NCBI GenBank assembly: GCA_963817895.1 | Contig: CAWFQB010000004.1 | Location: forward strand, 32,001 to 96,000 | Length of the DNA stretch: 64,000 bases | Direction of reading: 5' to 3' | DNA from: an uncultured Chthonomonadaceae bacterium | GTDB taxonomy: Bacteria; Armatimonadota; Chthonomonadetes; Chthonomonadales; Chthonomonadaceae | In this document: piece after piece, positions 1,746 through 28,750 of the stretch | Layout of the letters: the number at the start of each line of letters is the position of its first letter | Numbering within the stretch: the first letter of the stretch is position 1 | Made by a program: the position numbers and the translations under genes | The notes under the pieces: model-generated | Told to the model about the DNA's origin: nothing | The model's database searches: none | Seen by the model: the letters and a program-made list of their open reading frames with translations, nothing else

Positions 1746-2662
1746 CTATGAACTCGGACGCAACAACTGCTCCGTCTGAACGTCCTGTGTACCTGTTGTC
1801 GCCCGGAGCAAGGTATCCGTTGCAGCAGAGGAAGCATCGGCAGCCCGCAGCAGCGTTTGACTGCTGCGTTGTTCCTCGGTGCGCAGTTGCAACGCTGGCA
1901 AGCACTGATTTGCTGCCTCCTGTATGCGCTTTTCTCCCGCTGACCCTGCTTCACGCTTTGCCAATCGCTCTACCACGGATAGCGCTTTGCTGTCTCCTAC
2001 TTGCTCGAAGGCTTGAAGAATAGCGATCCGTATATCAATGGCGCTGTTCCTGGCAGGTTGAAACAGATAGCGCACATCTTTGAACAGAGGGTTTTCGACG
2101 GGCAGGCTGAGGATGTGGCAGAGTTTGGCGCGTTGTGCGTCATTGAGCAGGGCGGCATCACTGGCTTGCAGGCGCGGTAACACAGAGATGAGCGCATCTT
2201 GGGCGATCTCACGGGTTTTGAGGTCATCGAGTTTCAGAGCATCAATCAATCGAGCCAATGGAACGCACATCGTATTGCTTTGCCACAGTCGCCGTCAAAC
2301 GGCGTCGGCGCTGACGATGCCTGCGAGCCGAGGAAGGCTCCACATGGCGAGCAGAGACAAACCGCAACGAAGCCAACAATAAAGGCAGGGGAGGCAAGAG
2401 CGGTAGCGGCGTATTTATGCAACATAAACACTGCCATCAGGAAGAACAACTCAAAAGCAATGATGGCACGCCACGAATGGCGTTGAAATTGCTTTGCTTC
2501 CTGGCTGAGAACGGCATGAACATCCTCTCCTTGCTCGACGACAGTGGACGCTTCCCCAATGCTTTTCACCGTTTTTTCTGTTGGACTTTGCCGAGGCATA
2601 AGGGCATTCAGTGTCTCGGTGGAGGGGGTAGCTTCTTCGGATTGCAGAAAGCGTTGTTCCAT
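1746..2662 (-). CDS. Membrane protein with HEAT-like repeats and a C-terminal LLRA-repeat tail; frameshift near 2260
   Basis: Two overlapping ORFs (2246..2743 and 1746..2270). Hydrophobic N-part, then a helical repeat (IAILQAFEQVGDSKAL), then the tail TLLRAA...TLLRAT...EQLLRPSS. Confidence 0.65.
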
Positions 2663-6476: not shown

Positions 6477-7226
6477 TCACTCCCTGGCTCCCGCACGGCG
6501 CAGAAGGATTACAACGTCAGAATGCTTGTTCTGCATCGCCCATTTGAGCGCCGTCTCTCCTCGTGGACACACCACATTCGGGTTGGCTCCCTTCTTGAGC
6601 AGAAAGGCAACATTGTCCGTTCGCCCGTAGAAGGCGGCAATCATCAATGGAGTTGTGCCATAGCCCAAGCGTGAGTTCAAATTTCCCCCAATGAGGATGG
6701 CATTTTGAATATCGGCAGGCGTGCCGTTTCTGGCAGCCACATACACGGTTCCCTCGACCTGTTCGCGCTGCATCTGGCGATATAGCAAACCAATCCCACA
6801 AAAGAACAAAGCGAACAGTAGAATTGATAATCCCAATCTTGCGTCATTGGGTACTTCCCAGAGATGTTTGTCGTCGCCTGCGCGTGTGGAGTGCGTTCGC
6901 CGCCGCAATAGGAGGAAGGGCAATCCCACCAGAAATGAGATGGGGACAGCACATATAAAGGCTGGAACATACACCTCACCAAGCCATGACAACTCTTTCG
7001 GGGAAATATGCGACCAGACAACATAGACAGAAACACACACGCCTGTGAGATAAGACGCCACAAAACTTGCCGTGACCGAGGCTATTAGGTATTTATGGAG
7101 CAGGCAGTGCGAGAGAATGGACGCAAGCCCTGCTGCTGCCAAAAACACGAGGAAGAAAACGTGGTCTATGTCAATATTTGTTACAGGAGTCATCGTCGCG
7201 TTCCTTTCCCAATGCAAGCCTGCCAT
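6477..7226 (-). CDS. Multi-TM protein with C-terminal ankyrin repeats
   Basis: Four hydrophobic segments; GTTPLMIAA and GETALKWA; ends LLRRAGARE. Confidence 0.85.
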   Translation of the reverse strand: MAGLHWERNATMTPVTNIDIDHVFFLVFLAAAGLASILSHCLLHKYLIASVTASFVASYLTGVCVSVYVVWSHISPKELSWLGEVYVPAFICAVPISFLVGLPFLLLRRRTHSTRAGDDKHLWEVPNDARLGLSILLFALFFCGIGLLYRQMQREQVEGTVYVAARNGTPADIQNAILIGGNLNSRLGYGTTPLMIAAFYGRTDNVAFLLKKGANPNVVCPRGETALKWAMQNKHSDVVILLRRAGARE

Positions 7227-7512: not shown

Positions 7513-8172
7513 TCATCCGTGTTTCCACATCCTTCGCTTCATCCCTACATCAGTCCTGTCAGTGCATACATCAGCATCACGACGAATCGGGGCAGCAGAA
7601 CAGACTTCTACATCGTCGGGCAGTTGGAGAAGTTCGCACTTTTCCTCATCGCTCACTTTGCCATCAAGCCATTCGGAGAGGGCAAGCAGGGCTTCGGCGC
7701 GTTCGTGGGCAGAGGGAGGATGAACACGCACTATAAATAAGAATGGCTCCTCTACAAACAACCACAATGAGAATCCACTCGGTGCGATAATATCGCGCCA
7801 GGTCGTTTGAACCTCTTTTTGGCAGTGCGGTGTCCATTGGGTTCCTGTAAACAGGTTATACTTTAGGACGAGTTTGCCCCACTGCCAAAGGTAATCACGC
7901 ATTCCCTCTGCACACGCTATCTTACATTGCGCTTCCTCCCACTGCCAACTCTTACAAGGGGAAGTATAACAAAACACAATTTCATTCTGTTTGGCGAGCC
8001 AGTGATGCGTTGATTCGGCAAACGCATCAGGGAGTACGTGACATGCCCAAGTTGTCACCCGCCGCAGTTCTTCATCCGACCCGCACAAAAACCGCAGCGG
8101 CTCTCCCGGCCCCGGCTTGGTGCGAAACCAGTTCTTAAACCGATACCAGAAGTGAGCCAGACTGTATTTCAT
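7513..8172 (-). CDS. Hypothetical protein
   Basis: 219-aa ORF with GAGGG upstream. Confidence 0.55.
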   Translation of the reverse strand: MKYSLAHFWYRFKNWFRTKPGPGEPLRFLCGSDEELRRVTTWACHVLPDAFAESTHHWLAKQNEIVFCYTSPCKSWQWEEAQCKIACAEGMRDYLWQWGKLVLKYNLFTGTQWTPHCQKEVQTTWRDIIAPSGFSLWLFVEEPFLFIVRVHPPSAHERAEALLALSEWLDGKVSDEEKCELLQLPDDVEVCSAAPIRRDADVCTDRTDVGMKRRMWKHG

Positions 8173-8225: not shown

Positions 8226-8645
8226 TTAATCTTTGATCCCGGCCTGGTGAAGAAAGCGCGCCATCGCCGGGTCTTTAGATTCCTTAGCGAAACGCAGCAT
8301 CGCCTCTCGCTTCAGCATCGCTTCTCGTTTGTCCGGTGAGTTGCTTAGTCTGGCTCCATGCTGCCAGAGAATATTGCATGTTTGTAGATTTCCACTGTTG
8401 ACCGCCATTTCCAGCACGTTAGAACCCGCATCCTCGAAGGTGGGAGGGACGCCCTGTGCTAGAAGCCGCTCCACCTCGGCAGTATGTCCCTTTCCGGCTG
8501 CCTCCCAGAGTTGTTCACCCATTTCATAGGAATGGAAGGCCGTTGTGACAGTATAAACAAACCAGACAACAGGGCAGGCAATACAGGTAAGGACAAGCGA
8601 GCCAATCAAAAGTACACGAAAAGGTTTGGAGAATTTTATTTGCAT
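8226..8645 (-). CDS. Membrane-anchored ankyrin-repeat protein
   Basis: N-terminal TM; LWEAAGKGHTAEVERLLAQG; ends FLHQAGIKD. Confidence 0.8.
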   Translation of the reverse strand: MQIKFSKPFRVLLIGSLVLTCIACPVVWFVYTVTTAFHSYEMGEQLWEAAGKGHTAEVERLLAQGVPPTFEDAGSNVLEMAVNSGNLQTCNILWQHGARLSNSPDKREAMLKREAMLRFAKESKDPAMARFLHQAGIKD

Positions 8646-8663: not shown

Positions 8664-9110
8664 TTACTCCGGCCCATTCACCGCCCGCACTAATTGCTCC
8701 TCATGCCTCTCCTGCCCTTCTGCGGCGGCTCTCAGCAACACAGCCTTTTGTGCCTGCGTCGGTGCCGAAGAAGCGCGAACAAGAGAACCGGGAGCGGGAA
8801 GGTGGGCGGTGTTGGCGCGGGTGAGAGGAACGACATCTTCCACCGTCGCAAATTTTCTGAAACTGGTCTTCATTCCTTTGTAGAAGCAGAAGGTCACTAC
8901 GCTGGACTCAACCGCATATAACGCACGATCTGAATGGAAGGTATAGCGGAGGTCACAGAAAAAATCCAATGCCGAGATGACAACATCTCCTCCGAATTCG
9001 ATGAGCATAAAGCCGCATATTACTGTCAAACAAGCCAGGCTGATGCGTGTAGCCTGTATCCGCAGATACTTCCCCCTGCTTACAATCCGCTTCCCCGTCT
9101 TCGGCTCCAT
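8664..9110 (-). CDS. Constant-ends/variable-core membrane protein, copy 1
   Basis: MEPKTGKRIVSRGKY, hydrophobic core, then PLTRANTAHLPAPGSLVRASSAPTQAQKAVLLRAAAEGQERHEEQLVRAVNGPE. Confidence 0.85.
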   Translation of the reverse strand: MEPKTGKRIVSRGKYLRIQATRISLACLTVICGFMLIEFGGDVVISALDFFCDLRYTFHSDRALYAVESSVVTFCFYKGMKTSFRKFATVEDVVPLTRANTAHLPAPGSLVRASSAPTQAQKAVLLRAAAEGQERHEEQLVRAVNGPE

Positions 9111-9150
9111 CCCTGCGCCTCTTTCTTCTGCTTTATCCATTTTGCCCCGG

Positions 9151-9495
9151 CTAGAAGTCCTCTCCGGGCTTGAGCACCGTCCGCTCTCCCCTCCATATTC
9201 GTCGTTCTTCTCGAACCGTTAATTTGCCTCTGACGTAATACGTGGTTCCCCATGTCCATTCGCGTATCGGCAATATCACAACACATACATCATCCTCACG
9301 AGGAGAAGCCCCTTGAAGCAACAGACGATGCGCGTTTGCATACTTGCCATCCACATCACTCAGAACTGCTTCCACATAGGCACAATCCAAATGCGCCTGT
9401 TTACTTGGTTTCGGCTGTATCTGCATTATCACCAGTGCCAGCAGAATGAAAGCAAGAAGAATAGACAAGGAGAGTCGAAGTCGTTTTTCCAGCAC
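9151..9495 (-). CDS. Small membrane-anchored hypothetical protein
   Basis: GTG start overlaps the TAG of the upstream gene (TAGTG); N-terminal TM. Confidence 0.65.
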   Translation of the reverse strand: MLEKRLRLSLSILLAFILLALVIMQIQPKPSKQAHLDCAYVEAVLSDVDGKYANAHRLLLQGASPREDDVCVVILPIREWTWGTTYYVRGKLTVREERRIWRGERTVLKPGEDF

Positions 9496-10163
9496 TACTT
9501 TTGTCCTCCCACTGCCCGTACCAACTGCTCTGACGAAGTTTCCTGTCCTTGTACGGCGGCGCGGAGTAACACGGTTTGCTGTTCTTGCAACGGCTCGGAA
9601 GACGCGCGTACCAGAGAATCGGGCGCAGGCAGGTCGGCGGTGTTGGCACGGGTGAGGGGGATGCTGTCATGGATTTTTCGGGCGTGTTTGAGACTGACGG
9701 TACTTGCAACGCGACACAGAATTATCCCCAACACCAACGCCGCATAGAAGACAAGGTTCACCGGCACGTACTCCGCTGGCAACCGGTGCCGAGAGGGTTC
9801 TATGGATGCTATAAATTCGTGGGTTTCCTGGGTTACGGAGTCAACATTGATCCGCATGTGCGTAATGGGCTGCGCCAGATAGAAGTCGAAGGCGTTTTTG
9901 ACACAATTGGCGAGGATCAGCAAGACGCCTATCCACACTCCCGCCCTCAACAGGCCGTGTATACCTTTGACAATCACGCCGCGCAGATACTCTCCATACG
10001 GCACGAGGCGCGGTTTGGGTTCTGGTTCGGGTAGCGGTTCGGGTAGCGGCAGAGGCGGATTGTAGTTGTCGCGATCACGGTGGTAGTCCCCGTTGTACAT
10101 GCTCACCGCTTCCAGGCAGGCCGAGAGGTCTATGCGTTTGTCGTCCATCTTCGTCGGTTCCAT
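9495..10163 (-). CDS. Constant-ends/variable-core membrane protein, copy 2 (Pro-rich insertion in the N-block)
   Basis: MEPTK...PLPEPLPEPEPKPRLVPYGEY, two TMs, then PLTRANTADLPAPDSLVRASSEPLQEQQTVLLRAAVQGQETSSEQLVRAVGGQK. Confidence 0.85.
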   Translation of the reverse strand: MEPTKMDDKRIDLSACLEAVSMYNGDYHRDRDNYNPPLPLPEPLPEPEPKPRLVPYGEYLRGVIVKGIHGLLRAGVWIGVLLILANCVKNAFDFYLAQPITHMRINVDSVTQETHEFIASIEPSRHRLPAEYVPVNLVFYAALVLGIILCRVASTVSLKHARKIHDSIPLTRANTADLPAPDSLVRASSEPLQEQQTVLLRAAVQGQETSSEQLVRAVGGQK

Positions 10164-10461: not shown

Positions 10462-10950
10462 CTAAACGATGTATTCTCTTACTGATACTTCCAATGCGAG
10501 AATATCGAATGCCCCGTAATCATCAAAACTAACTGCGTAGTGATGTAGATCAGACTCCTTCAGCACATGCCCCAACCGCTCCCCTGGATAGTTTCTAAGA
10601 GGGCCTTTGGAAAGCAGGTTCTCAATATACGGCGAACCTTGAATATCTATCAATCCGAAACAACTCACGCCAGGAGGGTAGTGTTCTAACTCCGGGAAAT
10701 CTTCGTATAGATTCTCGAATGTTCTAAAGCGATACTCGAAGACGTTCTTAAAACGAAATTCTCCATACACCTTTTTTCCGTCAGGCAACCAGTTGAAAAT
10801 GTACTTAAGAACCAAGTGTACGGCTTCATCTGCTATGCCTTGTACTTCGACCCAGGGGCCGTTCACGAAAGCGGTAGACTTGCCGGGAATGGGAATGTTT
10901 ATGAATTGCATTTTGCGTCCTACATGCCGCAGTTTATCCTCACGTTGCAC
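10462..10950 (-). CDS. Hypothetical soluble protein
   Basis: 162-aa ORF starting a few nt after the inferred stop of copy 3. Confidence 0.65.
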   Translation of the reverse strand: MQREDKLRHVGRKMQFINIPIPGKSTAFVNGPWVEVQGIADEAVHLVLKYIFNWLPDGKKVYGEFRFKNVFEYRFRTFENLYEDFPELEHYPPGVSCFGLIDIQGSPYIENLLSKGPLRNYPGERLGHVLKESDLHHYAVSFDDYGAFDILALEVSVREYIV

Positions 10951-10954
10951 CCTC

Positions 10955-11375
10955 TTACCCCTGACCCTCCACCGCCCGTACCAACTGTTCCGGCAGCGTC
11001 TCTTGTCCTTCGGTGGCGGCGCGGAGCAATACAGCCTCCTGCGCCTGCATCGGCTCTGTGGAAGCGCGTACTAGAGTGTCGGGAGGGGCGATCGGCAGTG
11101 TTGTGGCGGGTGAGAGGAACAACCGGTTCGATGGCGCGTACTCTTTGCCCTATTTTCAGTGCTATCCAAAACAGAGCGGCAGCATACAGCATCCAAAAGC
11201 AGAATGCCATTTGCGCTGGAACGGAAGGCATGTACTCCGGGTGTCGCCCCGCAAAGAGCGCAACCATTCCGAAGAAAATTATACACCCCGCGAGTAAACA
11301 CAACTTTGCTTTCTTTAGCAGAAACCGAACATACACCCCTCTGCTCACAATCCACTTGCTCGTCTTCGGCTCCAT
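10955..11375 (-). CDS. Constant-ends/variable-core membrane protein, copy 3; frameshift near 11080
   Basis: MEPKTSKWIVSRGVY...PLTRHNTAD; the shifted frame reads DTLVRASTEPMQAQEAVLLRAATEGQETLPEQLVRAVEGQG*. Confidence 0.8.
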
Positions 11376-11405: not shown

Positions 11406-12098
11406 TTACTTTCTGCCTTTTTGCAGCAGCGCTACAAGGTCGGGGCGCTTATTGTTTTGTGCAATCGTAAGGGGAGTCCTTCCAGCCTTGTTGGGGTGGG
11501 TGGGGTCGGCTCCGTGTGCCAGCAGAAGCCGGAGGATACTCGTCTCGTATCTATTGTATAAGGCATAATGTAATGCGGTGTCACCCTGCATATTTTCAAC
11601 GGCAGCGTTCGCGCCATGCTCCACGAGCAGCCCCGTCAGTCCCGCATCCCCGCGCAGAGCGGCAAACATGAGTAGCGTATTGCCTTCAAAGTCTTGTTGG
11701 TCAATGTTCGCGCCATGTACCAGCATCGCACGAATCAAGGGCACATCTTCCAGGGGTTTGATGTCTGCGGTAAAACTAGCCGGGGATGCGTAACATTCTG
11801 TTGCATCCGCCAGTAAAAACGCCGTAAAACTATCCTCGGCAAGCGCAGGCGAACGGTGCAGTAAGTGGCTTAGAAGCAATTTCAGGGTAGGGGCAGGCGG
11901 CGGGTTGTAGCGCGTGTTCGGGTCGGCTCCCGCATTGACGAGGGTAAGCGCCTGTCCGATGTCCTTCCGGTCAAGCGCAGCAATCAACTGCCGATTGAGC
12001 GCATACTGTCGTTTAGCCTGCCGCACCCACACATCACAGCCGCCAACCAGTAGCGCGGCTACAAGCACAGACACAACTAGAAAGCGACGAAGTTTCAT
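11406..12098 (-). CDS. Membrane-anchored ankyrin-repeat protein
   Basis: TM, then RQYALNRQLIAAL; GNTLLMFAA, GDTALHYA, GRTPLTIA. Confidence 0.9.
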   Translation of the reverse strand: MKLRRFLVVSVLVAALLVGGCDVWVRQAKRQYALNRQLIAALDRKDIGQALTLVNAGADPNTRYNPPPAPTLKLLLSHLLHRSPALAEDSFTAFLLADATECYASPASFTADIKPLEDVPLIRAMLVHGANIDQQDFEGNTLLMFAALRGDAGLTGLLVEHGANAAVENMQGDTALHYALYNRYETSILRLLLAHGADPTHPNKAGRTPLTIAQNNKRPDLVALLQKGRK

Positions 12099-12345
12099 AC
12101 TCCTCACATTCGCCGCCGTTCGCCAAACTCCTGCTTGTTTACCATTGCATCGGCTCTAATTCAGTTTTCAAATGCGAATTCTTAGGAGCAATTCATTTAT
12201 TACATGGCATTGTGGGGATCAGCGTTGCTGCAAACACTATCAGAACGAAAGTCTGAAACCGCCTTTCACAAAGTACACGTAGTGTCATCAGACAAGAACC
12301 TTGTTTTTGCCACCGCGCCTCTGCTTTACGCGCAAGGAGAACCCC

Positions 12346-13350: not shown

Positions 13351-13842
13351 TCAATCAATGCCTTGCTTGTACTTCCACCAGTCCAGCCCCCATACGGCAA
13401 GCCCTGCGATAAAACAGACCACGCCTAGAAGTATTTGCGTTTGACTGTCATCCGTGTTGGGAGAAGCGCCTTGTACGGCGCGCTCTTGGATGTAGTGCCT
13501 GAACAGGATAAAGCCGCCAATCCCCCAGGCTGCTAAAGGCGTCAGGCAACTTGGCTTCTGGCGTGTAGACGGGTCTGACGAAGACGGTTGGGGCGGCCCC
13601 AAACTGATGAAGTGAGACAGCGCCGCAGGCTTCCCCGTTGGTTTATAGACAAACAGGTAGTACCCGCTGGCACATGCGAGCAAGCCGCCCATTATCCAGA
13701 TGACGTACTTTGCATTGCCTAAAGAAGGCGAGTCTTCGCTAGATACGAAACTGCTCCCAATCCCAAGCAAGGAGTAGATCAAAATAGCCCAGGCAACACC
13801 GCGTAGCCATTTGGGTTTAGTTGGTTGGGGTTGATCGTCCAC
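13351..13842 (-). CDS. Hypothetical membrane protein (about four TMs)
   Basis: GTG start directly after the orphan tail; hydrophobic segments. Confidence 0.7.
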   Translation of the reverse strand: MDDQPQPTKPKWLRGVAWAILIYSLLGIGSSFVSSEDSPSLGNAKYVIWIMGGLLACASGYYLFVYKPTGKPAALSHFISLGPPQPSSSDPSTRQKPSCLTPLAAWGIGGFILFRHYIQERAVQGASPNTDDSQTQILLGVVCFIAGLAVWGLDWWKYKQGID

Positions 13843-14017
13843 TGGTTGCGCTTCCTTTCTCCTGTGCTTCTGCCGATGCTCTCACCAACAGTTCCTCATA
13901 CCTCTCCTGCCTTTCCTGTGCCGCCCGAAGCAACACAGCCTTTTGTGCCTGCGTCGGTTCCGAAGATGCGCGAACTAGGCTGTCGGTGATGGGAAGGTCG
14001 GCGGTATTGGCATACTC
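13817..14017 (-). pseudogene. Orphan copy of the constant C-terminal LxRA tail (no start codon, N-block or core)
   Basis: Between two in-frame TAA codons: EYANTADLPITDSLVRASSEPTQAQKAVLLRAAQERQERYEELLVRASAEAQEK... Confidence 0.8.
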
Positions 14018-14449: not shown

Positions 14450-14863
14450 CTATTCTTGTTCCACAGACGCCCGTACCAACTGCTCAGGCGGTGTCTCCAC
14501 CCCTTCTGCGGCGGCGCGGAGAAGGACGGATTCCTGCGCCTGCGTCGGTTCTGATGACGCGCGAACAAGAGAATCGTGCGCGGGCAGGTGAGAGATAGTG
14601 GCAAGTTGTACGTTATTGCGCTCACAATAATCTTGCGTAAAGCGGTACAGCGTGAGCCAGGGCGCTTGCGTCTTCTTTCGTAAGAGCGACACTAGACCCA
14701 ACAATGTCGGTAGGTGTTCTTTGTCCGATGACGCTTGTAGTTCTTCTGCCAATATGGTTTCAAAAACTTGGTGCCAGTCAATATGGTATCTCTTGCGTAC
14801 TAACAGGGATGGTATTTCGCTTGGCTTATTAGTTTCAGGTTCGCTACCCGTCGTCGGCTCCAT
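14450..14863 (-). CDS. Constant-ends protein with a soluble helical core, copy 4
   Basis: MEPTTG...; tail HLPAHDSLVRASSEPTQAQESVLLRAAAEGVETPPEQLVRASVEQE. Confidence 0.8.
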   Translation of the reverse strand: MEPTTGSEPETNKPSEIPSLLVRKRYHIDWHQVFETILAEELQASSDKEHLPTLLGLVSLLRKKTQAPWLTLYRFTQDYCERNNVQLATISHLPAHDSLVRASSEPTQAQESVLLRAAAEGVETPPEQLVRASVEQE

Positions 14864-15883: not shown

Positions 15884-16099
15884 TTACTCTCTATGCCCCT
15901 CCACCGCCCGCACCAATTGCTCCTCATGCCTCTCATTCCCCTCGGTTGCGGCTCTCAGCAACACGGCCTCCTGCGCCTGCAACGGTGCCAAAGAAGCGCG
16001 AACCAGAATGTCAGATGGCTGAATTGGTGGCTCTGGTTCTCCTAACAAAACCACTATCACCCGCTCTATAAACTGACGCTTCCCCGTCTTCGGCTCCAT
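15884..16099 (-). CDS. Constant-ends protein with almost no core, copy 5 (71 aa)
   Basis: MEPKTGKR...DILVRASLAPLQAQEAVLLRAATEGNERHEEQLVRAVEGHRE. Confidence 0.8.
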   Translation of the reverse strand: MEPKTGKRQFIERVIVVLLGEPEPPIQPSDILVRASLAPLQAQEAVLLRAATEGNERHEEQLVRAVEGHRE

Positions 16100-16216: not shown

Positions 16217-16633
16217 TTACTCTTTGGCTCCGGCATGTTGGAGAAGGCTGATTACTGCCTTAACGTCTTTAGTGCGTTGGCTGGCAGGGTAGTTGTGTAA
16301 ACCTACCCACCTTATAGGCAAATTGTACTTCGCGAGTTCTAAGGCTGAACTATCAGCAGGATTTTGTCGGCTGACAGTGTTGAGCCACAACCGCCAACTA
16401 GGGGTACTCACATAATAGTCTGAGAACCATAATCCCCGCGCATTTGCACCGGCTCCCTGTTGGAGCAATCGTGAAACGGCAGGAGGATCGGGAAATAAAA
16501 TGGCAGCAATCAACGCTTGGTTCAACTTTGCTTGTCGCCATGCCTGCCACGTCAATACAGCAGGTACAGCCATCAGTATCACGAGCAGCCCGCAAACAAG
16601 TAAAGTCAAACGCAAAAATCGGTGTTTCTTCAT
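16217..16633 (-). CDS. Membrane-anchored degenerate ankyrin-like protein
   Basis: TM, then WRQAKLNQALIAAI, LLQQGAGANA; ends LLQHAGAKE; ATGA overlap with copy 6. Confidence 0.8.
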   Translation of the reverse strand: MKKHRFLRLTLLVCGLLVILMAVPAVLTWQAWRQAKLNQALIAAILFPDPPAVSRLLQQGAGANARGLWFSDYYVSTPSWRLWLNTVSRQNPADSSALELAKYNLPIRWVGLHNYPASQRTKDVKAVISLLQHAGAKE

Positions 16634-17121
16634 ACTTTCCTCTGCCCTTCCACCGCCCGTACCAATTCCTCCTCATGCCTATCCTGCCCTTCTGCGGCGG
16701 CTCTCAGTAAAACGGCCTGCTGTGCCTGCATCGGCTCGGAAGAAGCGCGTACCAGGCTGTCAGGAGCAGGAAGGTCAGCGGTATTGAAGCGGGTGAGAGG
16801 AACGCCAAGATTAATCTGGTTAGCCCTGTTTTCTGCGGCTTTGTAGGCGCGAATGGTTGCTCGCAAAGGGGTTTTCATCAGCATCAATAAATGGGAAGTC
16901 GTTTGGTGGCAGGGCGCATCTTGAGCATATAGCATTCTCGGAAAGTGTCTTATAAGGCCGTCTAAGATAGATAATATGATGAGACTTGGCAACAACACTA
17001 TTACCTGACATACCACCACAATGCAATGAAAAATGCACAAAGCCATCCAAGCCTCGCGAAGGAACATTCGCCGTACATACTCCCCTTTACTCACAATCTT
17101 CTTACCCGTCGTCGGCTCCAT
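16630..17121 (-). CDS. Constant-ends/variable-core membrane protein, copy 6
   Basis: MEPTTGKKIVSKGEY...PLTRFNTADLPAPDSLVRASSEPMQAQQAVLLRAAAEGQDRHEEELVRAVEGQRKV. Confidence 0.85.
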   Translation of the reverse strand: MEPTTGKKIVSKGEYVRRMFLREAWMALCIFHCIVVVCQVIVLLPSLIILSILDGLIRHFPRMLYAQDAPCHQTTSHLLMLMKTPLRATIRAYKAAENRANQINLGVPLTRFNTADLPAPDSLVRASSEPMQAQQAVLLRAAAEGQDRHEEELVRAVEGQRKV

Positions 17122-17602: not shown

Positions 17603-18235
17603 TTACGCTCCCAGCCTCGTGTCCTGCCCCTGTGGGGAAGGTTGGGGCGGTTCTGCTGTTTCTGTGTCCCATACGGAGCCATTTTTGGTATGCTTGACGC
17701 CAAGCAACACGCGGATCGCCGTCACATAGCGCTCAAACACTTTACTGCGTTGTGAGCCGGTCTCCTGGCTCCTCAATGCTGGCTTGCTTACGTCTGCGTC
17801 AGAGGGATAGTCACAAGTATTCTGAATCCTTCGTGACTTCCCTTTCTGTCCCGACTGCTCAATCATCAGCCCCCAGCGTTCGGAACCGTTGAACGGCCCC
17901 GGCTTCTCCTGTAACCATTGCCACAGGTGTACCGCCTCCATTTCCTGCCAGAACTGCTTCCAGGCTTGGGGAGAAGGAGTGACTTCTTTGACATCTGGTA
18001 TTATTATCCCGAAGTGTACCGGGAAAGTGAAGTATTCCAGTGCCTTGCCGTTCCAGTTGACTTCATAGTGGTCTTTTCTATCTTCAATATACAGTGCGAA
18101 GCACTTGGGGAGGTACGGCGCTTTTGTGTTGATAGGCGAATTCTTTTTGGACTGTGCTGGTAAGGGCAACGTATAAATGGATAAGAGAACAAAAAGCCAT
18201 GCGAAACTAAGTTGATTCGTCTTCCTGTTCATCAT
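17603..18235 (-). CDS. Exported hypothetical protein
   Basis: Signal-peptide-like N-terminus; start overlaps the stop of copy 7. Confidence 0.7.
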   Translation of the reverse strand: MMNRKTNQLSFAWLFVLLSIYTLPLPAQSKKNSPINTKAPYLPKCFALYIEDRKDHYEVNWNGKALEYFTFPVHFGIIIPDVKEVTPSPQAWKQFWQEMEAVHLWQWLQEKPGPFNGSERWGLMIEQSGQKGKSRRIQNTCDYPSDADVSKPALRSQETGSQRSKVFERYVTAIRVLLGVKHTKNGSVWDTETAEPPQPSPQGQDTRLGA

Positions 18236-18721
18236 TCCTCCTGCCCTTCCACAGCCCGCACCAACTGCTCAGGCGGCGTCTCGTGTCCCTGGGCGGCGGC
18301 GCGGAGGAGGACGGACTGCTGCGTTCTGTTGCGGTACCGAAGACGCGCGTACCAGACTGTCAGAGGCGGGAAGTTCGGCGGTGTTAGCGCGGGTGAGGGG
18401 CTGTAAGTCCCTAATAACAATTCTACTTTTATGACTTTCTCGCCACAGAACACGAAGGGTATAGCCAAGTGGCCCCAATAAGAAAAGACACCAAAAAAAA
18501 GCCATCATTGCATGTGTAATCGTAGGAACATATCTGACGTTATAACGCATCAATCCGCTCTGTTCCTGTGCGTCTAAGGCGCAGGCGGAGGGAATGTTTA
18601 CCAGTAACAACACGATGCCGAGGCCGCAAACCAAAACGCTGCTACATAGAAATAATGAGAGTGACTGCGCCTTAACATATTCGCCCTTGCTCACAATCCG
18701 CTTGCCCATCTTTCGCTCCAT
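18232..18721 (-). CDS. Constant-ends/variable-core membrane protein, copy 7; frameshift near 18325
   Basis: MERKMGKRIVSKGEY...PLTRANTAELPASDSLVRASSVP; the shifted frame reads QQSVLLRAAAQGHETPPEQLVRAVEGQEE*. Confidence 0.8.
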
Positions 18722-18739: not shown

Positions 18740-19186
18740 CTACTCCTGTCCATTCACCGCCCGCACCAATTCCTCCGATGGTGTCTGACTTCCCTCTGAG
18801 GCGGCACGGAGCAATATGGTTTGTTGTACCTGAACCGGCTCCGAAGAAGCGCGAACAAGGCTGTCCGCGCCGGGTAGGTCGGCAGTGTTGGAGCGGGTGA
18901 GAGGGAGGCCCGAATCTGTTTCTTTCGCTTCTTTTACTGCACCTACGCCGAAGTAGAGAAGCGCAACGGATAAACCACCCATGAACAAGATTATAAACAC
19001 AAGAAGCGGTAACTCCGACCATTTGAAGCGCACAAGTCCCATGCCAAACAAACCACAGGTGCAGACGAAACAAAACCCTCCGATTAGAAAAACAATTACG
19101 CCGAAGGAAGATAAGGCCAACTTACTTCCAAGATTGACGGCGTACCTGCCTTTACTCACGATCTGTTTACCCGTCTTCTGTTCCAT
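18740..19186 (-). CDS. Constant-ends/variable-core membrane protein, copy 8
   Basis: MEQKTGKQIVSKGRY...PLTRSNTADLPGADSLVRASSEPVQVQQTILLRAASEGSQTPSEELVRAVNGQE. Confidence 0.85.
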   Translation of the reverse strand: MEQKTGKQIVSKGRYAVNLGSKLALSSFGVIVFLIGGFCFVCTCGLFGMGLVRFKWSELPLLVFIILFMGGLSVALLYFGVGAVKEAKETDSGLPLTRSNTADLPGADSLVRASSEPVQVQQTILLRAASEGSQTPSEELVRAVNGQE

Positions 19187-19288
19187 CTTTACGCCTTTTG
19201 TTACTCTGCATGTCTGCCATTTCAGCATATTACAACTTCGAGGCTAAGAGCGTTTAGAAAAAGTAAAATCCTGCGTTTCTATTCGGCC

Positions 19289-19867: not shown

Positions 19868-20467
19868 TTACCGTTTCGCGCCTGCGTTGAGAAGCATTTG
19901 AACAATCTCAGGATGATGAAATTCGCGTGCATAGTGGAGCGCACCCCAATTGCTGTCTTCGTGATCGTAGACATCTACATCGGCTCCTCGGTCAAGAAGC
20001 GCTTGCACAATGTCCGTGTATCCTTCGGCAGCGGCCCAGATGAGAACAGGCAGATCGTCGTCGTTGAGAGCGTTGAAATCACGCGCGCCATGTTCAATCA
20101 GGGCTTTGACGACAACAGCATCGCCATGACTTTGTTTCATCCCTAACGCCAGTTGCAGTGTGGAGCGCGGATATTCTTCCATATCATCTGCGGCGTTTGT
20201 GACTGCGGGAGATCGCTGATAATACGCATGAAACACTTGCCAGAACGTTGGAAGTGGTTTGTCGCTGTCACGCGCATTGGCGTTGGCTCCGGCGTCTAGC
20301 GCGTTCAGCACGGCATTAGCGTTGTCGGCAAGGATAGCAGCAATCAGGTCATGGTCAACATGCTGTTGCCGATACTGCTTGTACGGCAAGGCGCATACAG
20401 CCAGCACGAACAACAAAGGAAACAGGATAGGAGAGAAATGGGCAGGACGTTGAAAATGGTGGATCAT
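19868..20467 (-). CDS. Membrane-anchored ankyrin-repeat protein
   Basis: TM, then YRQQHVDHDLIAAI, GANANARD, LIWAAAEG; ends LLNAGAKR. Confidence 0.88.
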   Translation of the reverse strand: MIHHFQRPAHFSPILFPLLFVLAVCALPYKQYRQQHVDHDLIAAILADNANAVLNALDAGANANARDSDKPLPTFWQVFHAYYQRSPAVTNAADDMEEYPRSTLQLALGMKQSHGDAVVVKALIEHGARDFNALNDDDLPVLIWAAAEGYTDIVQALLDRGADVDVYDHEDSNWGALHYAREFHHPEIVQMLLNAGAKR

Positions 20468-20688: not shown

Positions 20689-21288
20689 CTATTTCGCTCC
20701 TGCGTTCTTTAGCAGCCTGATGAGATTAGCGTTTCTATCCGCCAGCATCAGGGCTGTATCACCATTGTCATCACGAAGATTGGGATTTGCCCCATTCGAG
20801 AGCAAGATGGAAGCCGTCTGCATAAATTCATCGTTTATGGCCCACATGAGCGGCGTTCTTCCCATGTATCCTTTGGCATCCAGATTAGCCCCCTTGTTTA
20901 TCAAGGCCGCCACGATAGCAGGTTCATCAGTTTCCTTTTCAAGACAGAACCGGTATCCTCTATCAGATGTCTCATAAACAATCTGCCCGTTTGTCATTGT
21001 CATTTGCGTTAGCACCGGTTGGCCTCCACCTACGGCGAGGAGCAATGCTGTTCGGCTGGAATTTTGGTTTCCCCAATGTCGGCCTCGTAGTCTCAGGAGC
21101 CATTGCTGCCAATTGGACACATTGCGATACTCGCTGTCTGTGGCATTGGGGTTTGCACCCCTGGCAAGGGCTACGAGTACAGGCTTGGTGTAGCCTTGTT
21201 CAACGGCAGCAATAAGAGCCTGATCCAACTGTGTCTGCCGCCATGCGCGCCACATCAGCACAACGGGAACCGCCAACAGCACCAACAT
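20689..21288 (-). CDS. Membrane-anchored ankyrin-repeat protein (true start probably near 21335, with a frameshift)
   Basis: WRAWRQTQLDQALIAAV, GRTPLMWA, GDTALMLA; ends LLKNAGAK. Confidence 0.88.
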   Translation of the reverse strand: MLVLLAVPVVLMWRAWRQTQLDQALIAAVEQGYTKPVLVALARGANPNATDSEYRNVSNWQQWLLRLRGRHWGNQNSSRTALLLAVGGGQPVLTQMTMTNGQIVYETSDRGYRFCLEKETDEPAIVAALINKGANLDAKGYMGRTPLMWAINDEFMQTASILLSNGANPNLRDDNGDTALMLADRNANLIRLLKNAGAK

Positions 21289-22131: not shown

Positions 22132-23095
22132 TTAGCCGCCTCCACCCATTTGCGGCTTGGGCGGATGCTGATAATATTCGACCGTGGACTTGTCCAGGCG
22201 AGTGGAAGCCGTCATCCCTACCTTCACTGGAAGATCAGGCACATAGGTGGTGAACTCCGCGACACATTCGTTGGGCTTGACGCTCCTGACGATGGCGTAC
22301 TTGTCTCCATCCAGGTACTTCTCGATGAACTCTGGCGTACCGTGCATGTTGCTCTACATGCCTGGTTTAAGGCCCTGCCGACTGCCTGCGCGAATGGTAA
22401 GGGCGATGATCTCTCCTGCCGCTTCTCCACTTCGGCCTTTGCCTTTCTTGCCTGTATGCACAACGGCGGTGATAGGAGCCTGAACTGGTGTGGCTAACAA
22501 GAACGTGTTCCAGGGTGTGGGCAATGCAGGCTTCCCTGTTGCTGCGTCCAATTTCATGCGCTGTGTAGTTCCCCAAGCGCACAAAATAGTCGCCGTGGAT
22601 GTCGCCCCGTGGTTCTTCTCCCAAGTTGATGTCGTTACAGAAATGGCGTAAGTCCTCATCCGGGATCAGGTACAGTCGCTTACCCCAGGAAACCGCAACG
22701 AGCGTTTTTAGAGGAAACGATGGCTTTGTCTCAAAGTGCGTGAGCAGTGCCTTTGCGTGGTTCCTACACATTGAAAAAGTACGGAAGTTGGTTGTGCGAA
22801 GGCTAAAGAATTCAGACGAAGGAGTGAGCGTGACGTGGTTGTTTTGGAAGGTATAGGTTCCTGACCATTCCGCCGACTGCCCATCATCACTGGACTGGGA
22901 GAAGAAGAACGTTTTGTCGCGCTTGAGATTCAGACCATCATTTTGGCCCAAGCCATCCCCTCGGTAGTATTCCCCAACAACGCTGACCTGCGCTTTCGGC
23001 GTCTTCTGGTCATAAGCCGACGCAGGCCCAGAACAGAAGACGGCAGCCATGAGGAAGCAAAGTGAGAGGAGGAACTGAACCGCAGGTAGTTTCAT
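22132..23095 (-). CDS. Exported hypothetical protein with several frameshifts
   Basis: Signal peptide MKLPAVQFLL; coherent sequence continues across ORFs 22367..23392, 22354..22659 and 22132..22347. Confidence 0.6.
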
Positions 23096-23435
23096 AGACT
23101 TTCTCCGACAGAATGCCTCATGGTGCATAGGGACAAATAACAGCAACCTACATGCCTTTAGAAGATGGTGTGCTTGCCGGGGATACATAAGACAGGTTCC
23201 AGGTGGATAAAAACACTTGGCATGGGAGAGAAATTTCTCTCCCATGCCGACGATTATCGCACTTGCTAAGGGTATGGGAGATTGATCTGGAGAGTAATAA
23301 GACGTAGAGTATTCATAACCTTCGTTGGCAGGATCAAGGAATAATTCTTCGGATGCGACATCACGTTTCATAACTCCACTGCGGCAAGCCATCGGATTTC
23401 TTCATCAGCGAACGTGTGCTATATGCAATCTGGGT

Positions 23436-26400
23436 TTATTGATGTGACTTCTGTATTTCTGTTGCTCTCTCCATACCGACAATTTGCGCCAGTCGCTCAT
23501 TCGCCACCGCCAAAACCTGTTCTGCCGTCGTTATACCCTCGCGCATTAGCGACATGTACTCACCGCGCGTCAACGTCAGGGGAAGGTTGAGCAGGCCGAG
23601 AGCGGCAGCAGGAATGCCGACCTCCAACTGCTTCAAGAGCATGTCCACGTCTTGAGCATTCGCGGGTACGACAATATGAACTAAGCAGGCGACCTCATGG
23701 GCGGCACGCAGGTGATAGCGTGTGTTATCCGCGAAGCGCCGAATGTCCCCGTGACTGGTCGCGCCGAACCACTGATTGGAAGTGTAGCGGCTCTCGATTT
23801 CGTCCATGTTCACACCGTCTATCCAATCCGCTAAGATGCAGGCGCGCTTACACCGCTTGATATAATCACCTTCCTGTGCCCGTTGCTGGTATAGCGTTAC
23901 AATGTCCCTGCCATAGCGAACCGCAGCCCATTGCGGACAAAATGCCTCCTTTTTGCTGCCTTTGAGTGTAGGTGTATAACCGCCGTCTGATTCAGGAAGG
24001 TTCTGCACCAGCGCCATCAGACGCTCGTGAGTCAGACTATCGGGTGAGATTGTACGCAACAATTGTATCAGTCGCACGCATGAAGAATAGGCCAGGGTCG
24101 AACGACCACAGGCGCGACCAATTGGCGTCAGTTGTACGAATGCACCATCCTGTTCCACCAAGCCCCATGTCAGCATTTCATCCAGCAGAATGTTCAATCG
24201 CCCTGCAAGCGTGGCCTTCCATTCAGGATGGCGGCGTATGGCCTGGAAGCCCCCAAATGTGCTGGCGAGCAACGTCGTAATCTGGTCGCGTGAAACGCGG
24301 GCAACCTGAGCCAGCAGACGCAGCGCCCACGTTTCTACCGCCTCCACCTCAAACGACGATTTCAACGGTTCGGGGTGGCCCTGCACGTATTTGCGGAAAA
24401 GTGCATCTCGCTGGTATGCGTTCTCGGCATAAAGTAAGGATTGTCCTTCCTCTTGGAAACCCAGTCTGCCTGCACGCCCCGCCATGTTACGGTATTCTGC
24501 CACTGTGTAGTCGCGCTCGTCCTCGCCAACAAAGCGGTGATCAGCCAAGATTACAACGGAAGCGGGGGTATTGATGCCTGCTGCAACAGTTGTCGTTGCT
24601 GAAAGAACGCGCACCTTGCTTTGTGGGTCGCGATAGGCACGCTCTACAAGAGAGCGCTCCTCACGATTCAAGTTCGTATTGTGAAAAGCCGTTCCCCCTC
24701 GCAAGCACTCGCGCAATGCAGTGGAGTCTGTGGACTGGTCGGTAGCGGGTAATTGGGCAATTACTTCAGTGGCGGCTGGTAGTCCAACCCCACCCGCTTC
24801 CTGCCCTTCCGCAAGATATTTGGCGCAAGACACGGACTTGCTCCGCATGTTGCGGAAGATAATTACCTTATGGTGCGCGTCGTTCATCAACTGGCGCACC
24901 AGTGGTACGATCACATCCTGCGCGCTTGGTTCTTTGCGACGCTGGTGAATGTTCTGACGCGGAACCAATTGCTTGACCTGGGAATTACCTTCCTCGTCTT
25001 GGAATTGGCATACACCATCATGGTCAAGGACACCTTCAACCAGTTTTACGGGTCGCCTGTCCGTCACCAAAGCCTCGCAGCCCAACCATTCATGGAAGGA
25101 GTTCAAATCTCCAATGACAGCAGACAGCGCCACAATTTGCGGTTGAATACCTCGTTCACGGGCGGCGATTAGGAAAGTCAAGAGCAGTTCGACTATGATG
25201 CCACGCTTCGGCTCGCACACAAATTGTGCCTCATCTAGCACGACCAACCCGATCTGTGACAAGGTAGTAGGATTCGAGACCGCCAGCGACAGGAACATTT
25301 CGTAAGTCATGCAGGCAAGATCGTACTTGCCGCGCGCGAAAGCGGTTGCCTGGTCAACGTAATCGCCTGTGCAGCGGATTACGCGCAGTCCCAGTTCCGT
25401 CCCGTAGAGTGCATCGAACTGGTCGTACTTCTCGCTTGTTAGGGCCTTGTACGGCAGTAGAAATACGGCTTTACGTCCTTCGGTAATGGCACACACAGCA
25501 GCCATCTCCCCAATCATGGTCTTACCCGACGAGGTGGGCGCGACTATGAGCAGCGACCTTCCATCCAGTACGCGGTAGTCATTGATAGCCTGCTGTTGCA
25601 GACTATTTAGCCCAGTAAGGAAACGGTCGGCCCAAGCCCGGAGAACAGGTTCAGGTAAACCAAATGCTGCCAACTCTTTGATTGCCCCTCCAACTCTCGC
25701 GCCGTAAAGTTCTGGAAACGCCTGTGCAAATATTGGGCCAGGTCGCAAGGGTGGCAGTGTCATGCCGCCCTCCACGAGACCTTGATAGAGCATGGGAGTC
25801 TGTGTAACACCCAAGCGCGCGGATTCGGCGCGCACACGATCCATCACGGCGCTCATTGCAGCCTGGACATTGATGACATCGGAGAAGGCACACAGCGCAT
25901 CAAGCAGGGCTTTTGGTAAACAGGCCATGTCGCGTTACAGGATGCTCATAGGCCGCCTCGTTTGTGTTCGCAGCGGAAATCAAAATACGGCCTCGCCCCT
26001 CCACAAGTACATCGAGCGGCATTTCGATGTCGCGCGGTATCGGCTCGTCATCCTCAAAGACACGGGCGGTCGCACCGCCCGAAAAGCAGCAGTCGAGCAG
26101 GATTAGTACGAACCGAGCCTGCGTTGCGCAAAACAAATCGCCGAGTTCACCCATCGAGAGGGATGTTTTGGCAACTTGGCTGGCGTCAGTGTCGTGCGCG
26201 AGCAAGCGGTGACTACGTGAGCCGTGCCCTGCGAATGAGACGATTACAGTGTCCTCTGGGCCTGCTGCACCCAGTGTCTCTTGCAGGGCGCTACGTATTG
26301 AGTCCTTCGTTGCCTGATCGTCCACGAGTAGCCGTGCCTGAATGCCAGGAATGCTATCGGAGAACAATGCCCAGAGCGCAGTTGCATCCCGCCGTGCGCC

Positions 26401-26469
26401 ACTCAACTCGCGAATGTGGTCATCACGGTATTTGTTTATCCCGATGAAACTTGCCAAAACTGCCATCAC
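23436..26469 (-). CDS. Caspase-like (C14) peptidase fused to a Ski2/Hel308-like SF2 helicase; one-base frameshift at 25911-25914
   Basis: IGINKY, FAGHGS (His) and LDCCFSG (Cys); helicase motifs APTSSGKT, DEAQ, ALSA and NMAGRAGR. Removing one base gives a continuous HGLFTKALLDAL. Confidence 0.88.
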
Positions 26470-26499
26470 TATCCATCTTTCTGCCCCAATCTAGGCACA

Positions 26500-26895
26500 T
26501 CACTGATCGGAGGTGATTGTATCTCCCGGATCGAGGTCTTTCACATCCATCTTGCAAACTGCTGCCAATTGCTTTAGCACGTCCGCCTCTGCCTGACTGC
26601 TGGCGCTCTTGGAGCGAATGTGAATGGTTTTGGAGGAGCCGTCCGCGTTTTGCGTCTGAATGCTGATTTCGGATTCATTACGTGTAGTGTGGCGCGTGAT
26701 CCAAAGCGCCAAAGCGCGCAGAGCCATGCCTGATGCTGTGATAATGGCAAGGGCAGTGGGAACATCGCGTCCGTGAGAGCCTGCTCCCGTCTCTTGCTCA
26801 AAACGCACAGTATCAGGTGGAAGTGTATTTGCGAGAGCAGCACAGTCCTCTTCCGACAGGTCAAGCACTGTGAGTGTACGAAGCACTGGTTCCAT
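26500..26895 (-). CDS. EACC1-like (effector-associated constant component) small single-TM protein
   Basis: GSHG, a hydrophobic segment ending LALWITR, then the hairpin ISIQTQNADGSSKTIHI; AAAGGAG RBS; directly upstream of the caspase gene. Confidence 0.6.
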   Translation of the reverse strand: MEPVLRTLTVLDLSEEDCAALANTLPPDTVRFEQETGAGSHGRDVPTALAIITASGMALRALALWITRHTTRNESEISIQTQNADGSSKTIHIRSKSASSQAEADVLKQLAAVCKMDVKDLDPGDTITSDQ

Positions 26896-27204
26896 AATCT
26901 TCTCCTTTAAGTTCAAAGCCTCACATAGCGAACAAAATGCTACTAAGATGACGGATGCTGCAAAGAAAAAGTGTCGCACTACACGAAATTATTCTATTGT
27001 TTTTCCTTCCAAACGAAGAAAATGGACAAAATTTCTTTAATTTTTACGTCCGATTAACCAATCAGCCAACTGCGCTTTCAGGCATTAACACCGTATCTCC
27101 ATCCCCCTTGTGCGTTTTTACATTCTCTGGCACGAGCATAGCCTCAAAACGCGCTCGCTACCCTATGTCCCTTCCGGGCAAAAGGCGCAGCCAGGAGAAA
27201 AACA

Positions 27205-28750
27205 ATGCAAGAGGATATAGTTTGTGAGGCTCATGCACTCTACGCCGCAGGATTTAATGTGCTCCCCGTTCAGTTCGCCAGCAAGGAGCCTTATGGTTCC
27301 ACAAGCATCTTGACTACGACTCGTATACATCCGTCGTCCATAGATCACTTATTCACCAGCAGCGGCATCGGCGTTATGATGGGTAGGCTGTCGGGCAATC
27401 TATTTGCCCTCGACTGTGACGACGATGCAACGTTCAAGTATGTCGGTGAGGAGTTGGATGCCCGCCATATTCATGCGTGGATCAGAGCTGGGAATGCGGG
27501 GTGGGCAATACTGGTTGCGCTGTGCCGAAGGAGAGGTGCAAAATGTTAATCAGGGCAAGTTGCAGGTGCTGGGCCACAGCCTTTACTCGGTTGTACCACC
27601 CTCCTGGCATCCCGGTGGTGTGATGTACGAATGGGCGCGACGTGAGGGCCAATTGCCTCCCAGTGTTTCCATTCGGCAACTCGATTTCTTGAAGTTGTCG
27701 CTCGCCGGAGATCAGAAGCCAGGCATCAAGCGCGACAAAACGACCCTCCCGCCTGCGGCCTATCGCGTTCTCGTGGAGGAGGACATCAACGGCTACAAGT
27801 CCAACAGCGAAGCCGAGTATGCCGCCTGTTTGTCGCTGCTTCGTGCGGGATGTCCCGATTTGATGATCCGAACGATCTTCGCTCAGTTCACCCCGCCGCA
27901 TTACGCGAAAAGTCGAGGCCGCTCCTTCGATAAGTACACGTTGGCGTCGGCAAAAGCGTATTTGAAGGCCCAAGACGAAAAACCTGTTGCAAGAGAAGCG
28001 GTGACGAACTGGCACTCATCACATTTTGTTCAGTATGCCGATGCGCGCTCCTGGCCCGGACGCACAGGCAATTCGGACAAGGCTGTATACCTCGCGCTTT
28101 GTCAGAGAATGCGAATGGATAAAGGCGCGCGTGTTTTTCGGGCCTCCATCCGTGAACTCTCTGAACTTGCCAATGTAGGAACGCAAGCGGTTCAGGCTGC
28201 GGTGAAACGTCTGCGAACGGCAAACTTGGTCAAGTACGAGAGCAAGGACGCAGTTTCGGGTGCTGCTTTGTACTCACTTATTGTCCAGCCGGAAATGACA
28301 GCAATCACCACAGTAGGCGAAGCCTACACCCGTGTAGCGGATAGTGTGGTGATTAGTGCTATCCAAGAGGACGCTTTCCATAATCGTGGCCTGGGCAAAT
28401 CGGCTTGTACGATTTGGCGTCTGTTACTCTCCGAGAACCGCGCTTTGACAGGAAAGGAAATCATTCAGGCTACGGGGCGTGTCTACAGCACGGTCAAGCA
28501 GAATTTAGTGAAGTTAGAGGCCGTTGGTTTAGCATGGCAGGAAAATGACGGTTCTCCAAGCCGCTGGTGTGGCGTACCTGCTGATCACGAGCAACTGCAT
28601 GAACTCGCCGTCAAATTAGGAACGCAGGGAAAGGCAGCAGTCCGAAAGGCACGACATGTCGAGGAGCGGCAAAAGAGGGCAAGCGTTATGCTGATAAAAC
28701 AGAAGGAGTGCTTCTTGGCGAGAACTAAAGCGTTGAGTATGGCTGCCTAA
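27205..28750 (+). CDS. Bifunctional primase/polymerase (Prim-Pol) replication protein with C-terminal HTH-like regions; frameshift near 27495
   Basis: GFNVLPV...KEP, GIGVMMG.LS..LFALDCD, RGGQYW and VVPPSWHPGG..YEW motifs. Confidence 0.8.

Follow-up and report, generated by a model that had tools for sequence, protein, structure and literature searches.

What does a protein gain from a short, regularly patterned peptide tail that many otherwise unrelated proteins of the same bacterial lineage also carry? This question is raised by a gene of an uncultured Chthonomonadaceae bacterium, for which we analysed a stretch of 64,000 nucleotides (nt) of contig CAWFQB010000004.1 (hereafter, the window). 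The gene is an open reading frame (ORF) of 222 amino acids (aa) on the minus strand (9495..10163), and the segment that drew attention comprises its final 55 codons and TAG stop (9495..9662, minus strand, stop at 9495-9497). From the letters alone, the original prediction had read this segment as a multivalent, cytoplasmic linear motif, repeated up to four times, that would recruit a common partner to unrelated protein cores. We show that the tail contains a real module, selected at the peptide level, C-terminal, modular in its distribution and restricted to one clade, and we propose, with a probability of about 0.55, that it acts as a docking tag: a multivalent short linear motif that would be bound by one common cytoplasmic partner through several equivalent pockets.

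The C-terminal 55 residues of the protein (SIPLTRANTADLPAPDSLVRASSEPLQEQQTVLLRAAVQGQETSSEQLVRAVGGQK) contained four LxRA motifs with a start-to-start spacing of 14/15/15 residues, as predicted, in the layout PLTRA-(10)-LVRA-(11)-LLRA-(11)-LVRA. The count of four held for this protein but not for the shared module, to which only the last three motifs belong: LVRA (9603..9614, codons CTGGTACGCGCG), LLRA (9558..9569) and LVRA (9513..9524), the latter preceded by SSEQ where the family consensus lead-in is TPPEQ. The first, LTRA (9645..9656), lies outside the module, inside a juxtamembrane element, PLTRAN, that is specific to one class of carriers (class A, described below); all four are on the minus strand. 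The protein fits the triple-LLR definition used here, namely three L-[L/V]-R-[A/P] motifs near the C-terminus with linkers of 9-11 and 10-14 residues, and it matched a hidden Markov model (HMM) of the tail, built on 48 tails (alignment A2, 39 positions) of which it is itself one, with 57.4 bits (E 9e-17), the match stopping 4 residues before the C-terminus. Upstream of the tail, it starts with MEPTK..., continues with a Pro-rich insertion that gives it a 50-residue N-terminal extension, and resumes with ...RLVPYGEYLRG; two transmembrane (TM) segments were predicted with a Kyte-Doolittle window, at residues 67-86 (9906..9965, minus strand) and 130-159 (9687..9776, minus strand). Pfam gave no match to the 222-aa protein, hence no HEAT domain.

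We searched the 8293 crude ORFs of the genome with a regular expression for three L-[LVI]-R-[AP] motifs separated by gaps of 8-14 residues; since 42 ORFs matched, compared with none in each of 30 residue-shuffled proteomes, the motif is non-random. The tail HMM matched 64 of the ORFs, 55 of them ending no more than 17 residues from the C-terminus, and a six-frame search of the genome gave 79 matches; in the fetched relatives, the tail lay within 10 residues of the end in 219 of 246. When 295 distinct tails were aligned to the HMM, the Leu positions of the three motifs were 97, 99 and 98% Leu and the Arg positions 96, 99 and 98% Arg, with Lys essentially never replacing the Arg and not among the common residues there. 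The residue after the Arg was Ala or Pro (Pro in about a quarter of tails), and the linkers were variable in these tails except for a T-P-P-E-Q before motif 3. Linker lengths among the 48 tails of the model were 10/11 in 19 and 11/11 in 12, the other 17 falling within 9-11 and 10-14, while the residues beyond the last motif were variable and numbered from 0 to 51. Ala, Glu, Gln and Pro abound in the tail, its median net charge is -2, and 0.5% of its residues are aromatic, versus 7.8% in the proteome. No model of Pfam, NCBIfam, PHROGs or PADLOC covered it, none of 8 window tail proteins had an NCBIfam match at E<=1, and a full-text literature search found no description of this tail.

Aligned class-A tails (n = 18, 153 pairs) had a median proportion of nonsynonymous differences (pN) of 0.26 and of synonymous differences (pS) of 0.65. 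The median ratio of the corresponding rates (dN/dS), the check that had been suggested on the first reading, was 0.22, at a median dS of 1.34 in the 129 pairs with finite dS (the other 24 were saturated). With purifying dN/dS at near-saturated dS, selection therefore acts on the peptide and not on a DNA site, as the original prediction had deduced from two synonymous codon strings for LVRA, both of which are present: CTGGTACGCGCG, besides the gene under study, at 18344-18355 (minus strand), and CTTGTTCGCGCT in two paralogues, at 8772-8783 and 18848-18859 (both minus strand). Unlike their tail, the TM hairpin of the same class-A proteins cannot be aligned.

The proteins that end in this module are diverse. 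Among the 64 carriers in the genome, 42 belonged to class B (HEAT-like), 14 to class A (hairpin-only) and 8 to neither, the last group including a 668-aa all-HEAT soluble protein and a soluble protein without TM segment or Pfam match. Class-B proteins consist of short N-terminal helices, a two-TM hairpin, a HEAT-like cytoplasmic domain and the tail (alignment A4), the HEAT-like domain closing with a conserved ...AAxECLPxLxxR helix directly before the tail. HEAT_2 (PF13646), the family of PBS-lyase-type HEAT-like repeats, was detected at E<=0.01 in 14 of the 29 larger tail proteins (4 at or above the 27.7-bit gathering score, 10 below); the likeness concerns the alpha-solenoid class-B core, not the tail and not the 222-aa protein. 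Class-A proteins combine a conserved N-terminal MEPKTGKRIVSKGxY, the unalignable two-TM hairpin and a conserved end of 55 residues (alignment A3; GVPLTRANTADLPAPDSLVRASSEPxQAQxAVLLRAAAEGQETPxEQLVRA). This N-terminal motif occurred 14 times in the genome; the tail followed 13 of these occurrences, and a tail with a frameshift followed the remaining one. PLTRAN was present in 125 of the 246 fetched relatives, close to the 127 with the class-A N-terminal motif. The three-motif core is thus common to all classes, and LTRA/PLTRAN is a separate class-A juxtamembrane element. Beyond this genome, the tail was found on an Ank (ankyrin)-repeat fusion and on a HATPase_c protein, so that the predicted sharing of one tail by unrelated cores was borne out by HEAT-like, hairpin-only, Ank-fused, HATPase_c and soluble non-TM cores.

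In the low-copy genomes examined, all tail matches fell within large open frames (284-528 aa), and the six low-copy carriers that we read were all class-B-like. Because of this, and because a search of four tail-negative genomes of the order gave no class-B core without tail, class B appears to be the ancestral carrier and class A a later offshoot. Two variants of the class-B architecture were also observed. In two proteins of about 415 aa (L073:6203-7459 in G022 and L075:6047-7288 in G118, both minus strand), the triple-LLR segment is internal and is followed by an extra HEAT-like unit, again ending in an ...AQECLxYLQAR helix, as if the terminal unit had been duplicated. An 892-aa frame (G000 C11:92791-95469, L035) joins an ADH-like enzyme (ADH_N, ADH_zinc_N) to a complete class-B module of helices, TM, HEAT-like domain and tail; in G118, a similar ADH-like gene of 582 aa lies 2.6 kb from a class-B gene.

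A sample of 301 Armatimonadota genomes, searched with the tail HMM, gave 30 matching genomes, all in one order, Chthonomonadales (17 of 17 sampled genomes in family f1, 12 of 15 in f2 and 0 of 1 in f3), and none among the 267 sampled genomes outside the order. Within the order, 63 of 68 genomes matched, with 1 to 79 matches each (f1, 41 of 41 besides the present genome; f2, 21 of 24; f3, 0 of 2), and the tail was kept in 38 of 41 genera; the five tail-negative genomes were 92, 96, 99, 97 and 64% complete. The tail is therefore genome-wide and order-wide, not confined to one paralogue cluster, confinement being an outcome that by its own terms would have refuted the original prediction. The narrower class-A pattern, searched against 185,579 species genomes, was confirmed only at 19 loci in 5 assemblies, all Chthonomonadaceae/Chthonomonadales metagenome-assembled genomes (MAGs). 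Among 1.84 billion representative proteins (50%-identity clusters), 2207 matched the tail at E<=1e-3 and 73 of these reached E<=1e-10. Searched by word index, the tail of the 222-aa protein returned 101 proteins of 122-389 aa, 61-100% identical over the tail and named only 'hypothetical protein' or 'uncharacterized membrane protein'; a word-index search among proteins of 546-2000 aa found no tail, which is weak evidence.

Most carriers have two adjacent hydrophobic segments, K/R-rich before the first and after the second, and the class-A N-terminus is strongly basic; HEAT-like domains without a signal peptide are expected in the cytoplasm. On these grounds, topology rules put both termini inside, and we infer that the tail is on the cytoplasmic side of the membrane, in agreement with the original prediction. 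It is also predicted to be intrinsically disordered, as its composition and the AlphaFold2 models suggest. In the class-B model (50-row alignment), the core was confident, with a mean predicted local distance difference test (pLDDT) of 87 and helices to residue 244, while the tail (residues 245-283) had a pLDDT of 53-56 and no secondary structure. In the class-A model, made for the intact 158-aa paralogue at 8664..9140 (minus strand; 30-row alignment), the mean pLDDT was 78 and that of the tail 54-68, and the only two strands were at residues 18-20 (RIV of the N-terminal motif) and 103-105 (just before PLTRAN), which suggests a small juxtamembrane clasp between the two cytoplasmic ends of the class-A protein.

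The invariant LLR, the absence of Lys in place of Arg, the fixed spacing, the disorder, the C-terminal position on unrelated cores, the purifying selection and the clade restriction are the reasons why we favour a docking tag. A lineage-specific module of about 40 residues, with three [S/T]-L-[L/V]-R-[A/P] units at fixed spacing (linkers mostly 10-11 and 11 residues), would have been appended to the C-termini of many otherwise unrelated Chthonomonadales proteins; each Leu-Leu-Arg unit would occupy one pocket of a cytoplasmic partner that is oligomeric or contains repeats, and many membrane proteins would thereby be tied to one common machine. Several points weigh against this reading. No partner was found among the genes neighbouring tail genes: when the 386 ORFs neighbouring the 64 tail genes were clustered, they gave an Ank group (7) and small groups of prepilin-like, oxidoreductase and WD40 proteins, and only the Ank-repeat membrane proteins recur beside tail genes (the 7 cases, mostly from the array in the window). 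Likewise, six loci from four low-copy genomes shared no gene context. The docking function is deduced from the behaviour of the sequence alone, and a role in cis, such as regulation of the protein's own cytoplasmic domain, is possible. None of the candidate partners put forward at first (an AAA+ protease, a scaffold or an export machine) was identified. A shell as partner was unsupported, and targeting to an encapsulin or microcompartment was rejected, as neither PF04454 (Linocin_M18) nor PF00936 (BMC) had a match in the 81%-complete genome and most carriers are membrane proteins, not soluble cargo.

Comparison with known C-terminal signals helps to place the tail. PEP-CTERM, LPXTG and GlyGly-CTERM signals combine a motif, a TM helix and a basic cluster and act outside the cytoplasm. 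The tail resembles them as a short C-terminal signature on dozens of unrelated proteins per genome within one clade, which implies one dedicated machine; unlike them, it is hydrophilic, acidic, disordered and cytoplasmic, follows the last TM segment and contains three repeated motifs. No hydrophobic segment follows the motifs, as a sortase or exosortase substrate would have, the tail being acidic and nearly free of aromatic residues; no sorting-domain model of NCBIfam or Pfam matched the tail proteins of the window, and no cognate sorting enzyme was found. The C-terminal peptide of FtsZ offers another parallel, with a hydrophobic-Leu-Arg core after a long disordered linker (the FtsZ of this genome ends in EDIDIPAFLRRRP). 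FtsZ, however, is one protein with one copy and many partners, whereas here many proteins carry three copies for presumably one partner, and the flanking residues differ.

The main rival, distinctly less probable than the docking tag, is that the partner is class B itself, the tail being the ligand of the HEAT/ARM-like groove of another class-B protein, so that class-B proteins would chain head-to-tail into a membrane lattice into which class A would plug. Consistently with this, the large low-copy carriers are class-B-like, and the tail-less core was not found in the four tail-negative genomes, but did turn up at the tail loci of G022. The class-B protein was modelled as an alpha-solenoid, and among its best structural matches are designed armadillo-repeat proteins whose structures contain bound basic peptides; of 51 class-B core matches, 42 carry the tail according to the HMM, with a degenerate LLR in 5 of the other 9. 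However, this co-distribution is trivial for a core and a tail that are parts of the same chain, some tails belong to proteins without any relation to class B, and AlphaFold2, given 50 aligned rows, left the tail undocked on its own core. A complex prediction of the class-B HEAT-like domain (L009 residues 112-245, alignment A4) with the tail (alignment A2) scored 0.02 against a mark of 0.32 and counts neither way.

It is improbable that the tail is a turnover tag, with an AAA+ protease or its adaptor reading the motifs and jointly controlling the levels of all carriers. Known degradation tags are shared C-terminal peptides on many unrelated proteins, and the tail resembles them in this respect and in its disorder, which is usual for protease initiation sites; as in the ssrA and ClpX systems, a common C-terminal peptide on many proteins would address one cytoplasmic machine. 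But recognition of the ssrA tag and of ClpX-binding tails hinges on their final residues, whereas in the present family the extreme C-terminus is unconserved, with its 0 to 51 variable residues past motif 3, and three evenly spaced internal motifs are foreign to known C-terminal degrons. The tag of the genome's own transfer-messenger RNA (tmRNA), ANTNQYALAA, is unrelated to the tail, and mimicry of it was rejected.

Equally doubtful is the view that a diversified set of membrane receptors uses class-A proteins as its constant signalling-adaptor chains. Within the membrane, the hypervariable hairpin would then associate with one or another variable single-pass protein, for instance the Ank-repeat proteins interleaved with class-A genes, and the invariant three-motif tail would relay to one common effector. 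Such a system would be a convergent bacterial analogue of multi-motif immune-receptor adaptor tails, its copies arising and decaying rapidly in a variable island where a caspase, a HamB-like helicase and an EACC1-like gene also lie. The likeness, an analogy only, is to adaptor chains with immunoreceptor tyrosine-based activation motifs (ITAMs): a small TM anchor, a disordered tail with one motif repeated at fixed spacing and, for several class-A genes of the window, adjoining genes for single-pass repeat-domain proteins. Unlike ITAM chains, the tail is bacterial and without Tyr or evidence of phosphorylation, and no homology is implied. The arrangement behind this view is a minus-strand array of small genes at about 5.8-21.3 kb, in which class-A copies alternate with Ank-repeat membrane proteins or lipoproteins and unnamed small ORFs; the six paralogous Ank-repeat genes, of membrane/lipoprotein type, are at 6477-7226, 8226-8645, 11406-12107, 16217-16633, 19868-20467 and 20689-21288 (all minus strand). 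In two cases, a class-A gene and the gene after it share 1-4 nt (9495-10163 with 9151-9495, and 16630-17121 with 16217-16633), and in a third an 18-nt gap separates them. The Ank-then-class-A order also occurs at two loci of a related MAG, and one related metagenomic protein (P0109) fuses Ank repeats to class A; away from the array, class-A genes are not regularly paired with Ank genes. The adaptor-chain reading was raised because the array layout, together with four decayed copies, fits a fast-turnover island.

More improbable still is a decoy for sigma factors, in which the third motif, TPPEQL[L/V]RA, would imitate the tip helix of the RNA polymerase beta-flap and so keep sigma region 4 at the membrane, as an unconventional anti-sigma factor. 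The sole PDB match of the tail profile was a sigma-70 region 4/beta-flap chimera (3T72, ...GTPEEKLLRA), and the genome has at least 43 region-4 matches of extracytoplasmic function (ECF)-type sigma factors above the Pfam cut-off. The PDB match, however, is not significant (E=0.19), the Pro that follows the Arg in about a quarter of tails would end the helix, and canonical zf-HC2 anti-sigma genes already stand beside many sigma genes, while Pfam found no zf-HC2 domain in tail proteins, which showed neither an anti-sigma domain nor a genomic link of that kind. Tail genes show no enrichment near sigma genes (6.8% within 5 kb, versus an average of 6.2%), and the genome's own flap tip (LTAEERLIIAIFGKK) lacks the tails' invariant Arg; on the distance statistics and the host flap-tip sequence, a sigma-factor link was rejected.

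We give as little credit to a tail without protein partner, either a membrane-interface element whose LLR dips into the inner leaflet or an inert entropic brush. Leu-Leu beside Arg could in principle suit a lipid interface, and the carriers reside at the membrane in any case; but the tail is net negative with nearly no aromatic residues, some carriers have no predicted TM segment, and lipid binding would tolerate the Lys that essentially never takes the place of Arg. Finally, a DNA-level feature (a recombination or regulatory site) with incidental peptide conservation is very improbable, for although the paralogues cluster in an array with degraded copies, the peptide is kept at near-saturated synonymous sites, the same motif is written in different codons, and the module persists across those 38 genera.

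Searched in six frames with the tail HMM, the window contained 10 tail copies, one of class-B type (1749-1862) and nine of class-A type, four of which were damaged (frameshifted, truncated or fragmentary); all the genes listed here are on the minus strand. The class-B-type copy belongs to a 174-aa protein with a HEAT-like core and no TM segment (1746..2270). Besides the 158-aa paralogue used for modelling, two class-A paralogues are intact: one of 163 aa at 16630..17121, whose overlap with the downstream Ank-repeat gene is 4 nt, and one of 162 aa at 18740..19228. In the paralogue at 10920..11375, a frameshift separates body and tail, the tail being in another frame at 10955-11122, and in the copy at 18235..18721, the frameshift lies within the tail (body at 18269-18721, remaining tail in another frame at 18247-18327). 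A truncated copy of 71 aa (15884..16099) joins MEPKTGKR almost straight to the tail, a 66-aa open frame at 13820..14017 is a tail-only fragment, and a 137-aa tail-bearing ORF at 14450..14863 has no predicted TM segment. Downstream of the 222-aa gene lies an ORF of 114 aa (9151..9495), with a hydrophobic N-terminal stretch seen by eye and no Pfam match, whose GTG start overlaps the TAG stop by 1 nt.

Other genes of these neighbourhoods deserve mention. An unnamed family of about 200 aa, starting ...FWYRFKNWFRTKPGPGEPL, is represented in the window at 7513-8172 (minus strand), has no Pfam match and recurs beside class-A genes in a related MAG (L051:4035-4613, L051:7282-7869 and L052:5742-6365). 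Directly upstream of the array, four adjacent genes (22367-26979, minus strand) encode a product with a weak EACC1 match (E 9e-4), a caspase-family Peptidase_C14, a helicase and an unnamed 341-aa product; the helicase, an 830-aa DEAD protein, matched PADLOC HamB models with E down to 1e-29, and the whole looks like a defence-type locus. For a 448-aa protein at 27404-28750 (plus strand), weak matches to Prim-Pol and to winged-helix domains (MarR_2/TrmB) suggest that a replication gene of a mobile element lies beside these defence-type genes. Further on, two citrate-synthase-family genes are divergent (31646-32929, minus strand, and 33026-34168, plus strand), the former with an N-terminal MerR/HTH_17 DNA-binding domain fused to the citrate-synthase domain. 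Elsewhere, in G000, three WD40 beta-propeller genes lie a few kb from tail genes (C5:513592-515687 and C3:497549-499075, L082-L084), possibly by chance; WD40 domains are classic peptide receptors.

Cells use shared peptide tags to send many proteins to a single machine, and the recognition of each new tag has led towards a dedicated pathway. The present one marks up to 79 open frames per genome and more than 2000 representative proteins, in a poorly studied order of soil and hot-spring bacteria whose type genus can be cultured. Identifying its partner would provide a large group of 'hypothetical' membrane proteins with their first functional assignment, and could bring to light a new principle by which the cytoplasmic face of the membrane is organised in Armatimonadota.

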